From the IMG/VR virus record IMGVR_UViG_2541047926_000009, positions 1 to 10,439 of that record: a DNA stretch of 10,439 bases; one strand, 5' to 3'. Below are positions 3,112 through 8,643 of this stretch, one piece after another. How positions within the stretch are numbered: position 1 is the first letter of the stretch; each line of letters opens with the position of its first letter. Position numbers and translations under genes: made by a program. The notes beneath the pieces are model-generated. The model worked only from the letters and a program-made list of their open reading frames with translations. It made no database searches and was not told where the DNA came from. This DNA comes from a virus. Taxonomy: Duplodnaviria; Heunggongvirae; Uroviricota; Caudoviricetes.

Positions 3112-3813
3112 TCATACACTTGCTCCTTTCAGCCCAAACTTAGCTTTGATTTCTGCGATCTTCGCCAGAGCCTGTGCACGATTTAGAGGTCTACCGCCCA
3201 TGACAGGAAGTTGTTTTACTGGTTCAGGTATCGCCTCACCACGGTTAATTCGCGCGGTCATACAGGTCAGCTCATCGGCAGCTTTACGCCGTAATTCCGC
3301 GTCAGTCAGCGCATTGGCCCGCATGTTCTGGTACAGGTTGGTAACCAACCAGTAGTGCGCGTTTGATTTCCATGGATAAGACTCTGCGTCCGGATACAGG
3401 CCACGCTTCCGGCAATACTCGTAAACCATATCAACCAGCTCGCTGACGTTTGGCAGCCCGGCGTTAACGGATGCTTCTTCCCGGCACCAGGCCACAAACT
3501 GCCCGGGTGATGGCAGGAATGGTCGATTCTGCCGACGGGCTACGCGCATTCCTGCGTTAACCTGTTCCATTGTGGTGATCCCGTTTTCCCGGAAAGCCAG
3601 CACCCACTGGCGGCGGATTTCGTTCAGTTCGTTCTGATCCCGGTTAGCCAGGCTCGCAGGGAAAGTTGCCAGTAACTGGCTGAACACACCGTTGATGATC
3701 TGCGCTACCTGCTGTACCTGCGGCTTTTCGTCGTACTGTTCCGGCATATTGTTGGCGATCCGGCGCATCTGCTCACGGTCAAAGTTAACCATCTGTGCGG
3801 CGATGTTTTTCAT
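3112..3813 (-). CDS. P: Replication protein P (DnaB helicase loader), lambda-type, 233 aa
   Basis: The 233-aa translation (MKNIAAQMVNFDREQMRRIANNMPEQYDEKPQVQQ ... KFGLKGASV) is near-identical to phage lambda P as recalled. The start ATG (3811-3813) overlaps the O stop (TGA 3810-3812) in an ATGA arrangement. Confidence 0.95.
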   Translation of the reverse strand: MKNIAAQMVNFDREQMRRIANNMPEQYDEKPQVQQVAQIINGVFSQLLATFPASLANRDQNELNEIRRQWVLAFRENGITTMEQVNAGMRVARRQNRPFLPSPGQFVAWCREEASVNAGLPNVSELVDMVYEYCRKRGLYPDAESYPWKSNAHYWLVTNLYQNMRANALTDAELRRKAADELTCMTARINRGEAIPEPVKQLPVMGGRPLNRAQALAKIAEIKAKFGLKGASV

Positions 3814-4739
3814 AAATCCACCCCGTAAATCCAGTCAGTGTTCGTCAGGTCGAGTTTTGGTTTGCCGGCTGTCACGCCAGCCTGTTGCTTGTTTCGGTTG
3901 ATTTCGAGCTGGGTCCACTTGTCGCGGAGTTTGGCCGGACTCAGCACGTTACCGGACCAGAAGTTGTCCTGGCATGCCCAGCGGAACAGCACGCACATGT
4001 CGCGGTGGTTATGTCCGTCACGTTCACGCATCAGGCGGATATCGTTAGCCCACCCTGCAAAATTCGGTTTTCTGGCTGATGGCGCGATGGTCTTCACCAT
4101 GTCAAACATCCACTCTGCGGCGGTCAGGTCTTCTGCTGTCCCCCACTTGCTGCCACTCTGAATTGCAGCATCTGGTTTCACCACAGGAAGATCGTTTTCT
4201 GGTTGGTCAGAGGATTCGCCAGAATTCTCGGACGAAAAAGGTTTTATATTGTCTTTTGTTAGTTTGTCTTTTGTGTTTACCTGATTCGGGTAAACGCCTT
4301 TACCTGATTTGGGTAAACTTTTCTTACCTGATTCAGGTAAATTTACCTCTTTCAGGTAAACTTTATTTTTCTTACCTGATTCGGGTAATGTTGACCATTC
4401 ACTGACCACATTATTAATACCGATATTCCGCCCGCTCTGAATCAAAATCCCACGCTTTACCAGAACACTTTTTGCAGCAGAACACTTGTGCGGCAATATC
4501 CCGGTCAATTCGGAAAGTTGCTCGTTGCTAACCCAATCCAGTTTTTTATTAAAGCCATATGTTTTGCGCATGACAGCCAGGAAGACCAGAAGCTGGTGCT
4601 GTGTTAATCCGGCCAGCATCACAGCTTCCAGCAACTCATTTGCAATGCGCGTATAACCATCATCGAGATCTGCCACGCGCGGCTCCTTTTGTGCCACATC
4701 CGGCACTGGAAAATTGAATATCTCAGCAGTGTTTGCCAT
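3810..4739 (-). CDS. O: Replication initiator O (lambdoid O protein) with divergent N-terminal iteron-binding domain and lambda-like C-terminal P-interaction domain
   Basis: C-terminus (ANDIRLMRERD ... KLRDKWTQLEINRNKQQAGVTAGKPKLDLTNTDWIYGVDL) closely matches lambda O; N-terminus (MANTAEIFNF ... VADLDDGYTRIANELLEA) is related but diverged. Start chosen at ATG 4737-4739 because GGGAGGAA lies 6 nt upstream; the ORF track's longer start at 4829 lacks this RBS. Iterons lie inside the gene. Confidence 0.9.
   Translation of the reverse strand: MANTAEIFNFPVPDVAQKEPRVADLDDGYTRIANELLEAVMLAGLTQHQLLVFLAVMRKTYGFNKKLDWVSNEQLSELTGILPHKCSAAKSVLVKRGILIQSGRNIGINNVVSEWSTLPESGKKNKVYLKEVNLPESGKKSLPKSGKGVYPNQVNTKDKLTKDNIKPFSSENSGESSDQPENDLPVVKPDAAIQSGSKWGTAEDLTAAEWMFDMVKTIAPSARKPNFAGWANDIRLMRERDGHNHRDMCVLFRWACQDNFWSGNVLSPAKLRDKWTQLEINRNKQQAGVTAGKPKLDLTNTDWIYGVDL
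4277..4388. repeat. Origin of replication: five 17-bp iterons (consensus TTACCTGATTCGGGTAA) with adjacent AT-rich tract
   Basis: Iterons at 4277-4293, 4300-4316, 4324-4340, 4343-4359 and 4372-4388, each with internal dyad symmetry (TTACC...GGTAA); they encode the LPESGKK repeats in O. An AT-rich tract (about 4237-4276) lies on the O-distal side, matching lambda ori architecture (iterons plus AT-rich region inside O). The iteron sequence differs from lambda. Confidence 0.75.
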
Positions 4740-5654: not shown

Positions 5655-5684
5655 ATAATAGCAATGCGTATTAACCAAAATCAA
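5655..5684 (-). promoter_or_regulatory. pR-like promoter for cro
   Basis: On the - strand: -35 TTGATT (complement of 5679-5684), 18-bp spacer, -10 TATTAT (complement of 5655-5660); about 30 bp upstream of the cro ATG. Confidence 0.5.
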
Positions 5685-5722
5685 TAGCAAAACGTGTTTT
5701 GACCATCAATACGCAAGCGTAT
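5658..5722. promoter_or_regulatory. oR-like operator cluster: three 14-bp sites at 25-26 bp spacing
   Basis: ATAGCAATGCGTAT (5658-5671), ATAGCAAAACGTGT (5684-5697) and ATACGCAAGCGTAT (5709-5722, near-palindrome ATACGC/GCGTAT). They overlap the pR -10, the region between the two -35 elements, and the pRM -10 respectively, mirroring lambda OR1-OR2-OR3. Confidence 0.5.
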
Positions 5723-5734: not shown

Positions 5735-6427
5735 ATGAAAAAAGAAACTCTTGCTGATCGCTTAAACCTAGCGATGGAACAATCTGGAATGTCTCAAGGC
5801 GCTCTTGCAAAGGCGTCTGGCGTAGCTCAACCCACAATCTGGAGACTGACAAGCGGCAACGCGCGCGGCTCAACAAAAATTGTTGAAATAGCTAATGCAT
5901 TGGGTGTTCGAACAGAATGGCTCTCATCAGGCATAGGCCCGATGAGAAATGACGGTCAACAATCAGGGAAGCCTGCTGTCAGCCATTCCAAATACTTCAA
6001 AATTGACGTTCTTGATATAGAAGTCAGTGCCGGGCCGGGTGTAATCAACCGTGAGTTTGTAGAAGTTCTACGCTCGGTTGAGTACTCGTTTGACGATGCT
6101 CGTCACATGTTCGATGGCAGGAAGGCGGAAAATATCCGCATCATTAACGTGCGTGGTGACAGCATGTCAGGAACGATCGAACCAGGTGATCTTTTGTTCG
6201 TTGATATCACTGTTAAATCTTTCGACGGTGATGGTATCTATGCGTTTCTGTACGACGACACAGCCCATGTAAAGCGCCTGCAAATGATGAAGGATAAGCT
6301 ACTGGTTATCTCTGATAACAAGAGCTACTCACCGTGGGACCCGATCGAGAAAGACGAGATGAACCGGGTGTTCATCTTCGGTAAGGTTATTGGGAGCATG
6401 CCGCAGACATACAGGAAGCATGGTTGA
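5735..6427 (+). CDS. cI: cI-like prophage repressor (N-terminal HTH, C-terminal LexA/S24 autopeptidase domain), 230 aa
   Basis: HTH region (GMSQGALAKASGVAQPTIWRL), candidate Ala-Gly autocleavage site (EVSAGPG), S24 catalytic Ser motif (RGDSMSG) and downstream Lys (AHVKRL). Divergent from cro across the operator region. Start set at ATG 5735; the track start at 5699 is a TTG with no RBS. Not lambda, 434 or P22 immunity by recall. Confidence 0.85.
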   Translation: MKKETLADRLNLAMEQSGMSQGALAKASGVAQPTIWRLTSGNARGSTKIVEIANALGVRTEWLSSGIGPMRNDGQQSGKPAVSHSKYFKIDVLDIEVSAGPGVINREFVEVLRSVEYSFDDARHMFDGRKAENIRIINVRGDSMSGTIEPGDLLFVDITVKSFDGDGIYAFLYDDTAHVKRLQMMKDKLLVISDNKSYSPWDPIEKDEMNRVFIFGKVIGSMPQTYRKHG

Positions 6428-6603: not shown

Positions 6604-6783
6604 ATGATTCGCAAATTATTAAAAATTATTGAATCTAAACCCCCTAGGGCCACTGATGCAGAGGTTCAGGAAGTTATTGACGAAATAAAGAAAAAACAAA
6701 ATGAAATTGCCGAAAAGAAGGAAGAGATAAAGAATGACCGTATCCGCGGCGCAAGAATCACAAACCACCGATTCATTGTATGA
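6604..6783 (+). CDS. Possible small Lys/Glu-rich protein, 59 aa, overlapping the start of the 283-aa ORF
   Basis: ATG 6604 to TGA 6781-6783 (MIRKLLKIIESKPPRATDAEVQEVIDEIKKKQNEIAEKKEEIKNDRIRGARITNHRFIV); not in the supplied track (below its size cutoff). Weak RBS (AAGAGA). Overlaps the downstream ORF by 50 bp in another frame. Could be spurious in AT-rich DNA. Confidence 0.25.
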   Translation: MIRKLLKIIESKPPRATDAEVQEVIDEIKKKQNEIAEKKEEIKNDRIRGARITNHRFIV

Positions 6784-7585
6784 TTTTCTATATGTTGATA
6801 ACAAGCGGGCATCATCGCTCTTGGCACAGATGCATGGGCCTGGTGTAATAACATCTATCAGACAGGTAACAGCTGAAGTTGACAAATCAGTAAGTGATGC
6901 CGGCTTTGACATTAAAATCATTAAGTCAAAACTTGGTGTTGAGGAAACTATCAATTACACCCATGAAAAAAGCTATGATGCTTCATGGACGCTTCCTATT
7001 AACCTCTTAGATAAACTTTCTGAAAATGATCTAATAAAAACAGAACTTAATGGTGAAAGACTTGGGAGTACTGTTTTATCTAAAGGCCATGTTCGTATTT
7101 TTGATATTTCCATGTTTCAAAAAAGCGTCCCGTTTGTAGCAAAAATGCTAAAGGCAGAACGCTCCAAGCTACCGCCAAAAGCAAAAAAAACGAATGATAG
7201 TATTGACGAAATCCCCGTCTCGCCCGGTGTCACTTTTGGCATGATGAAAGAAGTACTTAATATTGTCCCGAACACATTGCAGGTTGATTTTATTAATGAT
7301 TTTGGTCAAACCATTTGGATGACTATTAATCGTGATTACCTCACCATTAATCCAGACGATATGGTTCTAAAATATGGTGGGAGTATTCCAGGCGAATGGT
7401 ACGTACTTGGTTTTATCGATGCCCTTCCTGAATATGACCAAGAACTTTTCGATATGTCTGTGTTCCCGTCAAACCCTTTGAAAGATGGCATAACAGAAAT
7501 GCTTTCTGGGATAAAAGAATTAGCAGGCCGCAGTAGCACCGCATACGGAATGACTCCTCTTGTGATTTTCAGGAAAATTCAGTAA
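6734..7585 (+). CDS. Hypothetical protein, 283 aa, at the position occupied by rexA/rexB in lambda; candidate superinfection-exclusion/anti-phage defence protein
   Basis: Long ORF with RBS AAGGAAG about 10 nt upstream of ATG 6734 and TAA at 7583-7585; visibly AT-rich; own promoter upstream and a strong terminator right after. No Walker, nuclease or transmembrane motif recognised by eye. Function is inferred from genomic context only. Confidence 0.6.
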   Translation: MTVSAAQESQTTDSLYDFLYVDNKRASSLLAQMHGPGVITSIRQVTAEVDKSVSDAGFDIKIIKSKLGVEETINYTHEKSYDASWTLPINLLDKLSENDLIKTELNGERLGSTVLSKGHVRIFDISMFQKSVPFVAKMLKAERSKLPPKAKKTNDSIDEIPVSPGVTFGMMKEVLNIVPNTLQVDFINDFGQTIWMTINRDYLTINPDDMVLKYGGSIPGEWYVLGFIDALPEYDQELFDMSVFPSNPLKDGITEMLSGIKELAGRSSTAYGMTPLVIFRKIQ

Positions 7586-7592
7586 GTTCAGA

Positions 7593-7619
7593 CCCGGCCA
7601 CCGTGCTGGGTTTTCTTTT
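7593..7619 (+). terminator. Rho-independent terminator (tIMM-like) ending the cI-cargo transcription unit
   Basis: Stem CCCGGC (7593-7598) / GCTGGG (7605-7610) with one G-U pair, 6-nt loop, followed by TTTTCTTTT (7611-7619); 8 bp after the stop of the 283-aa ORF. Confidence 0.65.
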
Positions 7620-7745
7620 GCCCTCCCCTCATCACACACCGCTCAAAAAACCACCACATCCCTGCTTCAGTTATCGCTATGCGATGCAAGTCACAAAATT
7701 AATTCTTTTTGCTATCAAACATTTAATATCAAAACACATCAACCA

Positions 7746-7784
7746 ATAGCAATAAGTATTGATATCACCAATAGCAATAGTTAT
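7746..7784. promoter_or_regulatory. oL-like operator sites (two 14-bp sites, 25 bp apart)
   Basis: ATAGCAATAAGTAT (7746-7759) and ATAGCAATAGTTAT (7771-7784) share the ATAGCAA(T/A) half-site with the oR sites and overlap the -35 edge and the spacer/-10 of the pL candidate. Confidence 0.5.
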
Positions 7785-7787
7785 TAT
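7759..7787 (+). promoter_or_regulatory. pL-like early-left promoter
   Basis: -35 TTGATA (7759-7764), 17-bp spacer, -10 TATTAT (7782-7787); oriented toward gam-bet-exo and overlapped by the operator-like repeats. Confidence 0.55.
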
Positions 7788-7980
7788 CACCATATCGCAA
7801 CAACACAACGATACGGCAACCACCTGATTCACCGTTGCGATGACCGCTTAGATCCGCAGTTTGAATTTCAGCAGGCTTCGGGGAGTGCGAGGGGTGAAAC
7901 GGACGCGTGAACGTCGGTGTGACCAGCTGAAATTAACTCAACATTTCATACCTCAGTCGCTTCAACGAGGCGGTTTAGTT

Positions 7981-8271
7981 ATGACAACCGGCGGCCATCC
8001 ACCGCCTGAATACGCGCAGAAGTCTCTATATGTTCAGCAGCCCAGCTTACGGGCAGGAGTTTTTATGGTTCATCAACATTACGGAACACAGACCGTTAAT
8101 CGCGGTGCGGTCATGCCAGGAATGCTGGTCAAACACAAAGATAGTACCTGGACAGCATCAGCTAATTTACGCGGACGGCTTTATCTGCATCGCGGCATCG
8201 AGCGCACTTATACCCGTGACTTGCTCGTGGAAGTTTTTCTCGACGGACGCGGCAACGGCCTGAATCACTAA
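7981..8271 (+). CDS. Hypothetical protein (96 aa from ATG 7981; alternative start ATG 8065 gives 68 aa) occupying the N-to-kil interval
   Basis: ORF ending TAA 8269-8271. ATG 7981 has GAGG about 10 nt upstream; internal ATG 8065 has a stronger RBS (AGGAG, 5-nt spacer). The same frame is open from 7852 and encodes an arginine-rich stretch (RGVRGVKRTRERR) but with no ATG (only TTG/GTG). No similarity to lambda N, cIII or Kil recognised apart from the shared terminal His-stop. Confidence 0.4.
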
Positions 8272-8346
8272 CCCCCTTTCCTGTTTTCCTAATCAGCCTG
8301 GCATTTCGCGGGCGATATTTTCACAGCCATTTTCAGGAGTTCAGCC

Positions 8347-8643
8347 ATGAACGCTTATTACATTCAGGATCGTCTTGAGGCTCAGAGCTGGGCGCGTCAC
8401 TACCAGCAGATCGCCCGTGAAGAGAAAGAGGCAGAACTGGCAGACGACATGGAAAAAGGACTGCCCCAGCACCTGTTTGAATCGCTATGCATCGATCATT
8501 TGCAACGCCACGGGGTCAGCAAAAAAGCCATTACCCGTGCGTTCGATGACGATGTTGAGTTTCAGGAGCGCATGGCAGAACACATCCGGTACATGGTTGA
8601 AACCATTGCTCACCACCAGGTTGATATTGATTCAGAGGTATAA
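8347..8643 (+). CDS. gam: Gam (RecBCD inhibitor), short GamS-type form, 98 aa
   Basis: Translation ([56 protein letters not shown] ... [10 protein letters not shown]) is near-identical to the C-terminal 98 aa of lambda Gam. AGGAG lies 8 nt upstream of the ATG. The in-frame upstream region has a stop at 8290-8292 and no ATG. Confidence 0.9.

Follow-up and report, generated by a model that had tools for sequence, protein, structure and literature searches.

The DNA analyzed here is a stretch of 10,439 nucleotides (hereafter the window) from IMG/VR virus record IMGVR_UViG_2541047926_000009, corresponding to the early region of a lambdoid prophage. Coordinates are positions in this window, the + strand of which runs in lambda's leftward direction. 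The part of interest is the leader of the early left (pL) operon and, within it, a 97-nt segment named module X, for which a role in the control of transcription termination is proposed below. The leader and its first gene are organized as follows.

7741–7787, + strand: oL operators (7745–7760 and 7770–7785) and promoter pL (−35 TTGATA at 7759–7764, −10 TATTAT at 7782–7787)
7794–7838, + strand: generic pL 5' leader, in the variant of the E. coli lineage called type A below, beginning at the predicted +1 (AUCG...)
7839–7935, + strand: module X, a 97-nt structured RNA, reading GAUGACCGCUUAGAU, hairpin P3, G-rich core, hairpin P4, then GUGACCAGCUGAAAUU
7946–8059, + strand: block 2, a structured segment with three hairpins and no Rfam family (also at locus L003 3001–3100 and locus L004 3001–3140)
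8065–8271, + strand: kil, the gene of a 68-aa KilR-type FtsZ/cell-division inhibitor, matching the PHROG_294 and NF008465 profiles

The promoter consists of TTGATA, a 17-nt spacer and TATTAT (promoter scan score 10/12). The 16-mer AATAGCAATnnGTATT is found at both oL operators, with matching repeats at oR 5657–5698 (repeat search). The oL repeats and the pL elements together lead to a predicted +1 at about A7794. Downstream of kil come gam, which begins at 8347 at a distance of about 555 bp from pL, bet (8649) and exo (9431). With high confidence, the region can be described as belonging to the pL operon, of which it forms the leader and first gene, in a lambdoid prophage that lacks N but is of an intact type; the prophage resembles Bievrevirus phages.

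The original prediction, made from the sequence of the window, had noted the lack of recognizable N, ral and cIII, and none of the three is present in this region. The features that it described in the sequence are real, but most of the explanations given for them do not stand. It had also considered a defective prophage. This idea is contradicted by phages deposited as isolates that carry the identical N-less architecture: 4A7 (Bievrevirus), Lambda_4C10, Perceval, 1W/3W/D2, Turner, IdasGreatGrand and the PhiR series. The shared layout, at 90–97% identity, is cI, cargo, pL, a leader of about 270 nt, kil-gam-bet-exo ... xis-int, without N. In the complete 4A7 genome, there is no N, the only annotated antiterminator is Q, and one copy of X is found together with 0 put and 0 boxA. 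The leader is also widespread in E. coli: of 5426 complete genomes, 2225 contain it, and in 2030 the match extends over 80% or more of the query. At 99.7%, the closest relative is a prophage inserted beside icd.

A conserved RNA structure in module X

The collected copies of X comprise 28 distinct 97-nt variants that align without indels. Its lineages are E. coli "type A," Scandinavium "type B" and Enterobacter "type C." The G-rich core served as the search pattern for one scan of viral contigs; a second pattern contributed just 8 close X variants. The elements of X are the following.

7854–7863 / 7872–7881, + strand: hairpin P3, with the near-invariant loop AAUUUCAG at 7864–7871, in which a few variants have an A-to-G change at one position
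7880–7896, + strand: G-rich core, GGGGAGUGCGAGGGGUG, nearly invariant in types A, B and C
7899–7904 / 7913–7918, + strand: hairpin P4, ACGGAC with GUCGGU, loop 7905–7912, 100% paired
7927–7934, + strand: arm complementary to the P3 loop, CUGAAAUU, from an inverted-repeat search

Both RNAalifold and explicit pair counting support the two hairpins P3 and P4. In the pair counting, 96.8% of cells in the X helices are paired, versus 27–41% in slid controls, and 5 pairs show compensatory changes. Three of these covarying pairs belong to P3 (GC/AU; AU/CG/GU; GC/AU/GU) and two to P4 (AU/GU/GC and AU/GC). None of 500 shuffles matched the covariation score. The fold can be assigned to the + (pL-sense) strand, the only one on which its U-G pairs hold; one of these pairs is retained by 27 of the 28 variants. 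X is thus, with high confidence as far as sequence comparison goes, a conserved structured RNA of the pL-sense transcript. Between the P3 loop and CUGAAAUU, a 6-bp core is 100% paired and its changes are only wobble-compatible, with no double changes. It is possible that CUGAAAUU is a pseudoknot arm with the P3 loop or, alternatively, one side of a long hairpin.

Within E. coli type A, the nucleotide diversity of X (0.025) is close to that of kil codon positions 1–2 (0.021) and about 3.4 times lower than that of kil third codon positions (0.084). This indicates purifying selection, a point in favor of the proposal made below. In Rfam searches, nothing reached the gathering threshold in the leader, where only chance-level matches appeared at E≤10, and nine related loci were also empty.

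Module X occupies the position of nutL and put

Similarity to heteroimmune phages breaks off just downstream of pL and begins exactly at 7794. More precisely, the homology to phages having at least 8 unrelated operator/promoter sets starts exactly at the predicted +1, which also favors the proposal made below. The shared part is a generic leader, the first 45–55 nt of the transcript (AUCGAAACGAAACAUCGACAGCUGAGCGAAGUUAGCCAGCGGCG), which follows more than 10 unrelated operator sets. Diverged copies were collected from a Kil-anchored sample of 40 species genomes and from the two viral-contig scans. Examples are found in the window (7794–7838), at L003 2276–2321, at L170 2941–2995 and at many other loci, where the leader precedes nut, put or X. 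What stands after the shared 5' leader depends on the phage. It is boxA/nutL with N in HK225, phi80 and many prophages; HK639, L039 and L041 have a put RNA of the HK022 type, and the window and the type A, B and C lineages have X, which begins 45 nt after the predicted +1.

A precise exchange is seen between HK639, which has put, and the X-type loci L075, L162, L046 and L139. Their left flanks (nt 1–52) are near-identical and their right flanks closely similar (AACGAKUUACCAGCAGCUCUUUGCGAGGGGCUGACGG...); only the put/X cassette differs. The right flank (L170 3081–3133; L075, L139, L046, L162) folds as a hairpin, CAGC-AG-CUC / GAG-GG-GCUG. It contains GCGAGGGG, an octamer also present in the X core, and lies inside the 126-nt "putL-like" feature of HK639.

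X is not a member of the put family as it can presently be modeled. A put covariance model (R1) was built from 7 sequences, namely HK022 putL and putR, HK639, phiEt88, CobraSix, S9-5 and PdC23. At E<0.5, neither the window nor its relatives contained a match, and 4A7 had none; with filters off, the best leader match stayed below 5 bits. The put signature motifs CGAACGGCGCG and GGCGGGUUCAGGAUGAACGGCAAU are absent from X. Likewise, no boxA (CGCUCUUA / UGCUCUUUAACAA) is found in 7794–8064 or at the plausible nutR position, even with 3 mismatches.

On the pR side, the HK639 record annotates an "M3-like RNA" (L256 37910–37969), its putL-like element being annotated on the left only. Close copies of the M3-like RNA occur in X-type L131 (8508–8581), L102 (7209–7282) and L215 (2601–2676), and in nut-type L044 (494–548); no copy was found in the window. 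In L131, L102 and L215, they lie on the strand opposite X, consistent with the pR side, an arrangement that mirrors the pairing of put and M3-like RNA in HK639. Leclercia/Citrobacter prophages (L012 ~3340–3440; L020 ~3265–3370) carry a different conserved post-pL sequence, ...CCCACGAAGUAGCC...GGCAUA.GAA....CGGA.UGAGGUGG..., which may be another leader element in the same slot.

The genes and signals that follow X are also informative. In all seven X-type phages with genes between X and kil (L029, L046, L075, L131, L139, L142, L162), a GC hairpin and T-run resembling an intrinsic terminator stands immediately before block 2. These phages have no put and no boxA, and the same terminator arrangement is shared by N-type and put-type phages. 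The intervening genes are mutually unrelated (HNH, TerB-like, Cys-rich, others) and none is N-like. In L029 (~1430–1740), as well as in L102, L131, L138, L142 and L166, 300–400 nt of conserved, apparently non-coding sequence follow X before the first sizeable gene. Further down the operon, L009, whose leader is 99.7% identical, has a terminator-like hairpin and T6 run before traR-xis-int, a possible barrier to be read through.

A candidate antiterminator RNA

The pL leader has a modular anatomy, X is structured, it stands in the slot of nutL and put, and N, boxA and put are absent. Because X occupies the nutL/put slot of related phages, it may be a new anti-termination RNA. By analogy with put, we consider it about as likely as not that X is a new RNA antiterminator acting in cis, equivalent to put in function but outside its family. 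In its broader form, the proposal is that X would represent an undescribed class of processive antiterminator RNA, unrelated to put in sequence or fold, reprogramming the E. coli polymerase in cis without a phage protein, exchanged as a cassette with put and nutL, and present in more than one third of sequenced E. coli genomes; for this form, we would put the odds slightly under even.

The following sequence of events can be envisaged. Transcription would start at about A7794 and yield the 45-nt generic 5' leader. The polymerase would next transcribe X, with its two covarying hairpins, G-rich core and perhaps pseudoknot, and then block 2, kil and gam-bet-exo. The nascent X RNA would act in cis on the transcribing RNA polymerase, no phage protein being required, as with the put RNAs of HK022 and HK639. 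The polymerase thus modified would resist terminators further down the pL operon. Both the anti-termination activity and its independence of protein factors are inferred.

As far as we know, the phage antitermination RNAs that work without a protein belong essentially to a single family, the put elements of HK022 and its relatives. If the proposal is true, X would give an independent view of how a nascent RNA makes RNA polymerase terminator-resistant, and would explain expression of the early left operon in very common N-less lambdoid prophages of E. coli. It would also provide a compact new part for synthetic control of read-through. Because put and X are exchanged naturally between shared flanks, the idea can be tested directly.

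It should be noted that several points weigh against this proposal. The X fold is no more stable than that of shuffled sequence (z = −0.2), and no more than three or four lineages contribute to the covariation. A second copy of X in the pR operon was found neither by repeat search nor with a model of X (R2) run on the window, L001, L002, L009 and the whole of 4A7. The window, of type A, has no terminator stem before block 2 and no strong terminator between X and kil-gam-bet-exo, so X could be dispensable there. Moreover, in some Kil-carrying prophages, pL lies directly next to kil with no element between them, which argues that anti-termination is not obligatory for such operons. Finally, no earlier description of X was found in the literature searched, which did not cover the main paper on put-like RNAs.

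Alternative explanations

The strongest alternative is that X and block 2 form a post-transcriptional 5' untranslated region which tunes the toxic kil and later genes through stability, RNase processing or translation control, termination being unaffected. We consider it unlikely. The three hairpins of block 2 are the following.

7946–7984, + strand: H1, with AUG 7981 and the preceding GAGG buried in it
7990–7994 / 8002–8006, + strand: H2, GGCGG, loop CCAUCCA, CCGCC, invariant in all relatives collected
8040–8043 / 8051–8054, + strand: H3, GCCC with GGGC, abutting the kil Shine-Dalgarno sequence (8055–8059), read from the sequence

H1 has the strongest covariation of the region (16 pairs, 7 of them with compensatory changes among 20 variants; fold z = −2.4) and buries an AUG and a GAGG. 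H3 lies next to the kil Shine-Dalgarno sequence, and at its position relatives have GCC/GGC or CGCG/CGCG hairpins before the start codon (by inspection). Constraint is seen across the whole leader, and the lack of a strong terminator between X and kil in the window also agrees with a role other than anti-termination. H2 shows no covariation and is unproven as a hairpin; its motif was the search pattern for collecting relatives, so that its invariance is partly by construction. The role of block 2 itself could possibly be in processing, in translation initiation or Rho-related. In phages of the N, put and X types alike, block 2 comes immediately after the tL1 terminator. In phi80 and HK225, homology to it sets in at the T-run of the terminator that follows N or gp38, and phi80 records annotate tL1 signals in this area. 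Three observations weigh against this alternative. Unrelated genes (the HNH, TerB-like, Cys-rich and other genes mentioned above) follow X in other phages, so X has no specific tie to kil. The exchange of X and put between common flanks is precise. Lastly, X stands upstream of intrinsic terminators in types B and C.

A second possibility is that X is a nut-like recruitment site for a trans-acting factor, which could be supplied by the host (Nus proteins, for example) or be the product of a phage gene located elsewhere. X lies in the nutL slot, as such a site would, and its layout loosely recalls a nut site, with single-stranded CGCUUAGA, then a hairpin, then GGUGUGA. Nevertheless, this appears improbable, since the boxA search was negative even with 3 mismatches and the P3 loop has 8 nt, unlike a boxB-type pentaloop. 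In addition, no gene is common to the X-type phages examined yet missing from nut and put types, the genes after X vary, the inventory of a type A phage shows only Q, and the pR operon lacks a second site.

Slightly less probable still is that X is a relic. In this case, an ancestral segment from X to tL1 would have been deleted, X would be non-functional in this lineage and antitermination would be absent. The junction CAACATTTCATACC, which retains 3 T of the terminator T-run CTTTTTTCATACC of relatives, fits a deletion ending inside the T-tract, and pL-kil arrangements without any element exist. Against decay stand the diversity of X, as low as that of non-synonymous kil sites and about 3.4 times below third positions, and the common polymorphisms of X, which are structure-compatible. 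Moreover, phages deposited as isolates have the arrangement, as do about 2030 of the 5426 complete E. coli genomes.

The original prediction had placed the RNA element elsewhere, in an inverted repeat at the very start of the transcript.

7794–7801 / 7834–7841, + strand: 8-bp inverted repeat, ATCGCAAC / GTTGCGAT

That this 5'-terminal stem-loop would itself be a functional put-like or stabilizing element is very unlikely. The perfect repeat is present as described; its first base is the predicted +1, the centroid fold contains the stem, and an O157 variant retains 7 of its 8 pairs. 5'-terminal hairpins are moreover able to protect E. coli mRNAs. On the other hand, the repeat is neither beyond chance nor conserved beyond one E. 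coli lineage. About 0.5 comparable repeats are expected by chance per 360-nt region by our own estimate, and the fold of 7794–7845 (z = −1.4) is equaled in 24 of 200 shuffles; the whole leader gives no thermodynamic signal (z = +1.0). Types B and C lack the stem, as do the leaders of phi80 and HK639; two small local hairpins are found there instead. Within type A, it is broken twice by single changes, which leave one G-U pair and two mismatches. What is retained is the pair of local hairpins, in the window hairpin 1 (7794–7797/7809–7812) and hairpin 2 (ACGG 7813–7816 / CCGU 7832–7835), with differing sequences elsewhere (GCGGC/GCCGC, GCUG-GC/GC-CAGC, ACGG/CCGU; by inspection). The 5' stem cannot be the antiterminator because the same leader precedes nutL and put. 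The earlier idea of RNA-based, put-like antitermination is supported in spirit, with module X rather than the 5' stem as the candidate element, and with X outside the HK022 put family.

The loop of the 5' hairpin (7799–7809) reads AACAACACAAC, which is near the GcvB R1 target consensus CACAACA (PMC4104026). The resemblance is probably incidental because the motif is not conserved in type C leaders. An AgvB-type anti-sRNA, considered from this CA-rich loop, was rejected: AgvB genes are located downstream of pR', and neither type B nor type C keeps the motif.

The original prediction had also raised the possibility of an arginine-rich protein encoded across X. The frame is indeed open over 7852–8271, after an in-frame TAG (7849–7851), and encodes ...RLRGVRGVKRTRERR..., the open part from 7852 including RGVRGVKRTRERR. 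It spans P3, the G-rich core and P4, and its conserved bases are those of the covarying RNA helices. In homologous leaders, the same frame has a TGA at X positions 38–40 (type C) and a TAA at positions 59–61 (types B and C), and because of these interruptions it is not a gene. The conservation of the frame can be explained, with high confidence, by RNA base-pairing, the frame itself being read as non-coding. The 136-aa translation has no Pfam match, and PHROGs matches its Kil part only. An apparent upstream ORF, "MTTGGHPPP," is conserved at the nucleotide level only and continues differently in every lineage.

An N-like antiterminator starting at GTG 7885/7894 or TTG 7861, possibly as a Kil fusion, for which one could invoke the open frame, a GGAG 8 nt before GTG 7894 and the motif KRTRERR, which we take to resemble the arginine-rich motif of lambda N, can hardly be maintained given the stops in homologous frames, covariation without codon periodicity, the homology of 7944–8006 to non-coding DNA after N in phi80, frame-breaking indels between X and kil within E. 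coli, an extension seen in no homologue of another genus and only in a few near-identical E. coli entries, the lack of a boxA or boxB target, and a conserved start at ATG 8065.

The kil gene and its start

The single ORF before gam had been described as not recognizable as Kil, and the operon as lacking kil. BLASTP against the 47-aa lambda Kil gave no alignment at E≤100. The statement that kil is lacking is wrong, since the product matches PHROG_294 "Kil" (E 4e-38) and, over its full length, the KilR model NF008465 "FtsZ inhibitor" (E 1e-17; residues 1–68 on profile positions 1–70 of 73). The NF008465 score of 63.6 bits is under the curated cut-off of 92, so the product is a relative and not a member of the same subfamily. 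PF27398 is recorded on homologues. With high confidence, judging from these profile matches, the ORF would encode a KilR-type division inhibitor of 68 aa, which corrects its annotation.

The start at ATG 8065 is supported by the conserved protein core, which begins there across genera, by the Shine-Dalgarno sequence AGGAG (8055–8059) 5 nt upstream, and by identical calls of the 207-bp gene by PGAP and in the 4A7 record. Longer versions were rejected. For a 96-aa Kil from ATG 7981, the AUG is buried in the covarying hairpin H1, the extension is not conserved across genera, and the in-frame link 7981–8065 is broken in some E. coli variants. The 96-, 125- and 136-aa forms are unsupported, the longer database entries being gene-caller extensions or frameshifted assemblies. 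Several database "Kil" proteins (clusters P0034–P0042) are frameshifted versions. An alternative-frame 77-aa ORF (8030–8263) has no family match and was also discarded; PhiR68_2 (L002 4439–4672) annotates the equivalent frame in place of kil.

Compared with Rac KilR (NF008465 / PRK11354), the kil product shares the full-length match and the location in a pL operon upstream of recombination genes. It differs in length (68 versus 73 aa) and by its score below the curated cut-off. With lambda Kil (47 aa), it shares the map position directly upstream of gam and the place of the stop codon, but no detectable sequence similarity. A recombination junction had been suspected at this stop codon, and the alignment bears it out: lambda homology starts at the last codons and stop, TCACTAA, and 100%-identity matches in many lambdoid and Stx phages span only 8265–8350.

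8263–8346, + strand: mosaic junction, lambda-type kil-gam intergenic DNA from the last kil codons/stop

Neighboring features of the prophage

Upstream of the leader, the immunity region and its surroundings comprise the following features.

~5735–6427, + strand: cI, S24/HTH repressor
− strand: cro-like YdaS, cII-like YdaT, then O and P
6734–7585, + strand: DUF6414 cargo gene (PHROG_9699), between cI and pL
7590–7621, + strand: intrinsic terminator ending the cI-moron (immunity) transcript, AGACCCGGCCACCGTGCTGGGTTT then a T-run (terminator scan), kept in relatives and upstream of oL/pL

The content of the slot between cI and pL is variable. The DUF6414 gene of the window is replaced by a SIR2-family protein in an O157 strain and by an ASCH-domain protein and a 353-aa protein in 4A7 and Es_ST80, and the slot is empty in HUSEC2011; it may be a cargo or defense hot spot. 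On the − strand, Rfam identifies a C4 antisense RNA (1857–1942, 72.7 bits) beside an isrK Hfq-binding RNA (1967–2039, 60.7 bits), upstream of an Ant-like anti-repressor gene (1202–1810, − strand). Five direct repeats of about 20 nt (TTTACCTGATTCGGGTAAAC; repeat search) at 4276–4390, within the O-like replication gene, are probably origin iterons.

Comparison with known systems

EAR and RARE are leader RNAs that keep the polymerase elongating, a concept shared with X. They differ from X in that they come from unrelated organisms and have unrelated sequences, and the leader has no Rfam match. EAR (Bacillus eps operon) and the Rho-antagonizing RARE motif (Salmonella mgtCBR leader) appear in the reference list of PMC8632103.

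X resembles the nutL/N system of lambda and phi80 in two respects: it stands in the same place behind the shared 5' leader, as seen in phi80, HK225 and many prophages, and the same block 2 follows the tL1 terminator. X differs from it by the lack of boxA, of a boxB-type hairpin and of an N gene.

The put RNAs of HK022 and HK639 differ from X in several respects. X has no match to the put model and no put motifs, and has a G-rich core and a possible pseudoknot; HK022 carries putR in its pR operon, where X has no second copy. put acts in cis without a phage protein and is blocked by mutations in the zinc-binding domain of the β' subunit, and comparable activity of X would be expected only by analogy. 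Nevertheless, put, like X, is a promoter-proximal, multi-hairpin element of 75–100 nt in the pL transcript, carried by phages that lack N and have intrinsic terminators downstream. In HK639 and its relatives, put is bordered by the 5' leader of about 55 nt on one side and by the right flank on the other, just like X in type C phages.

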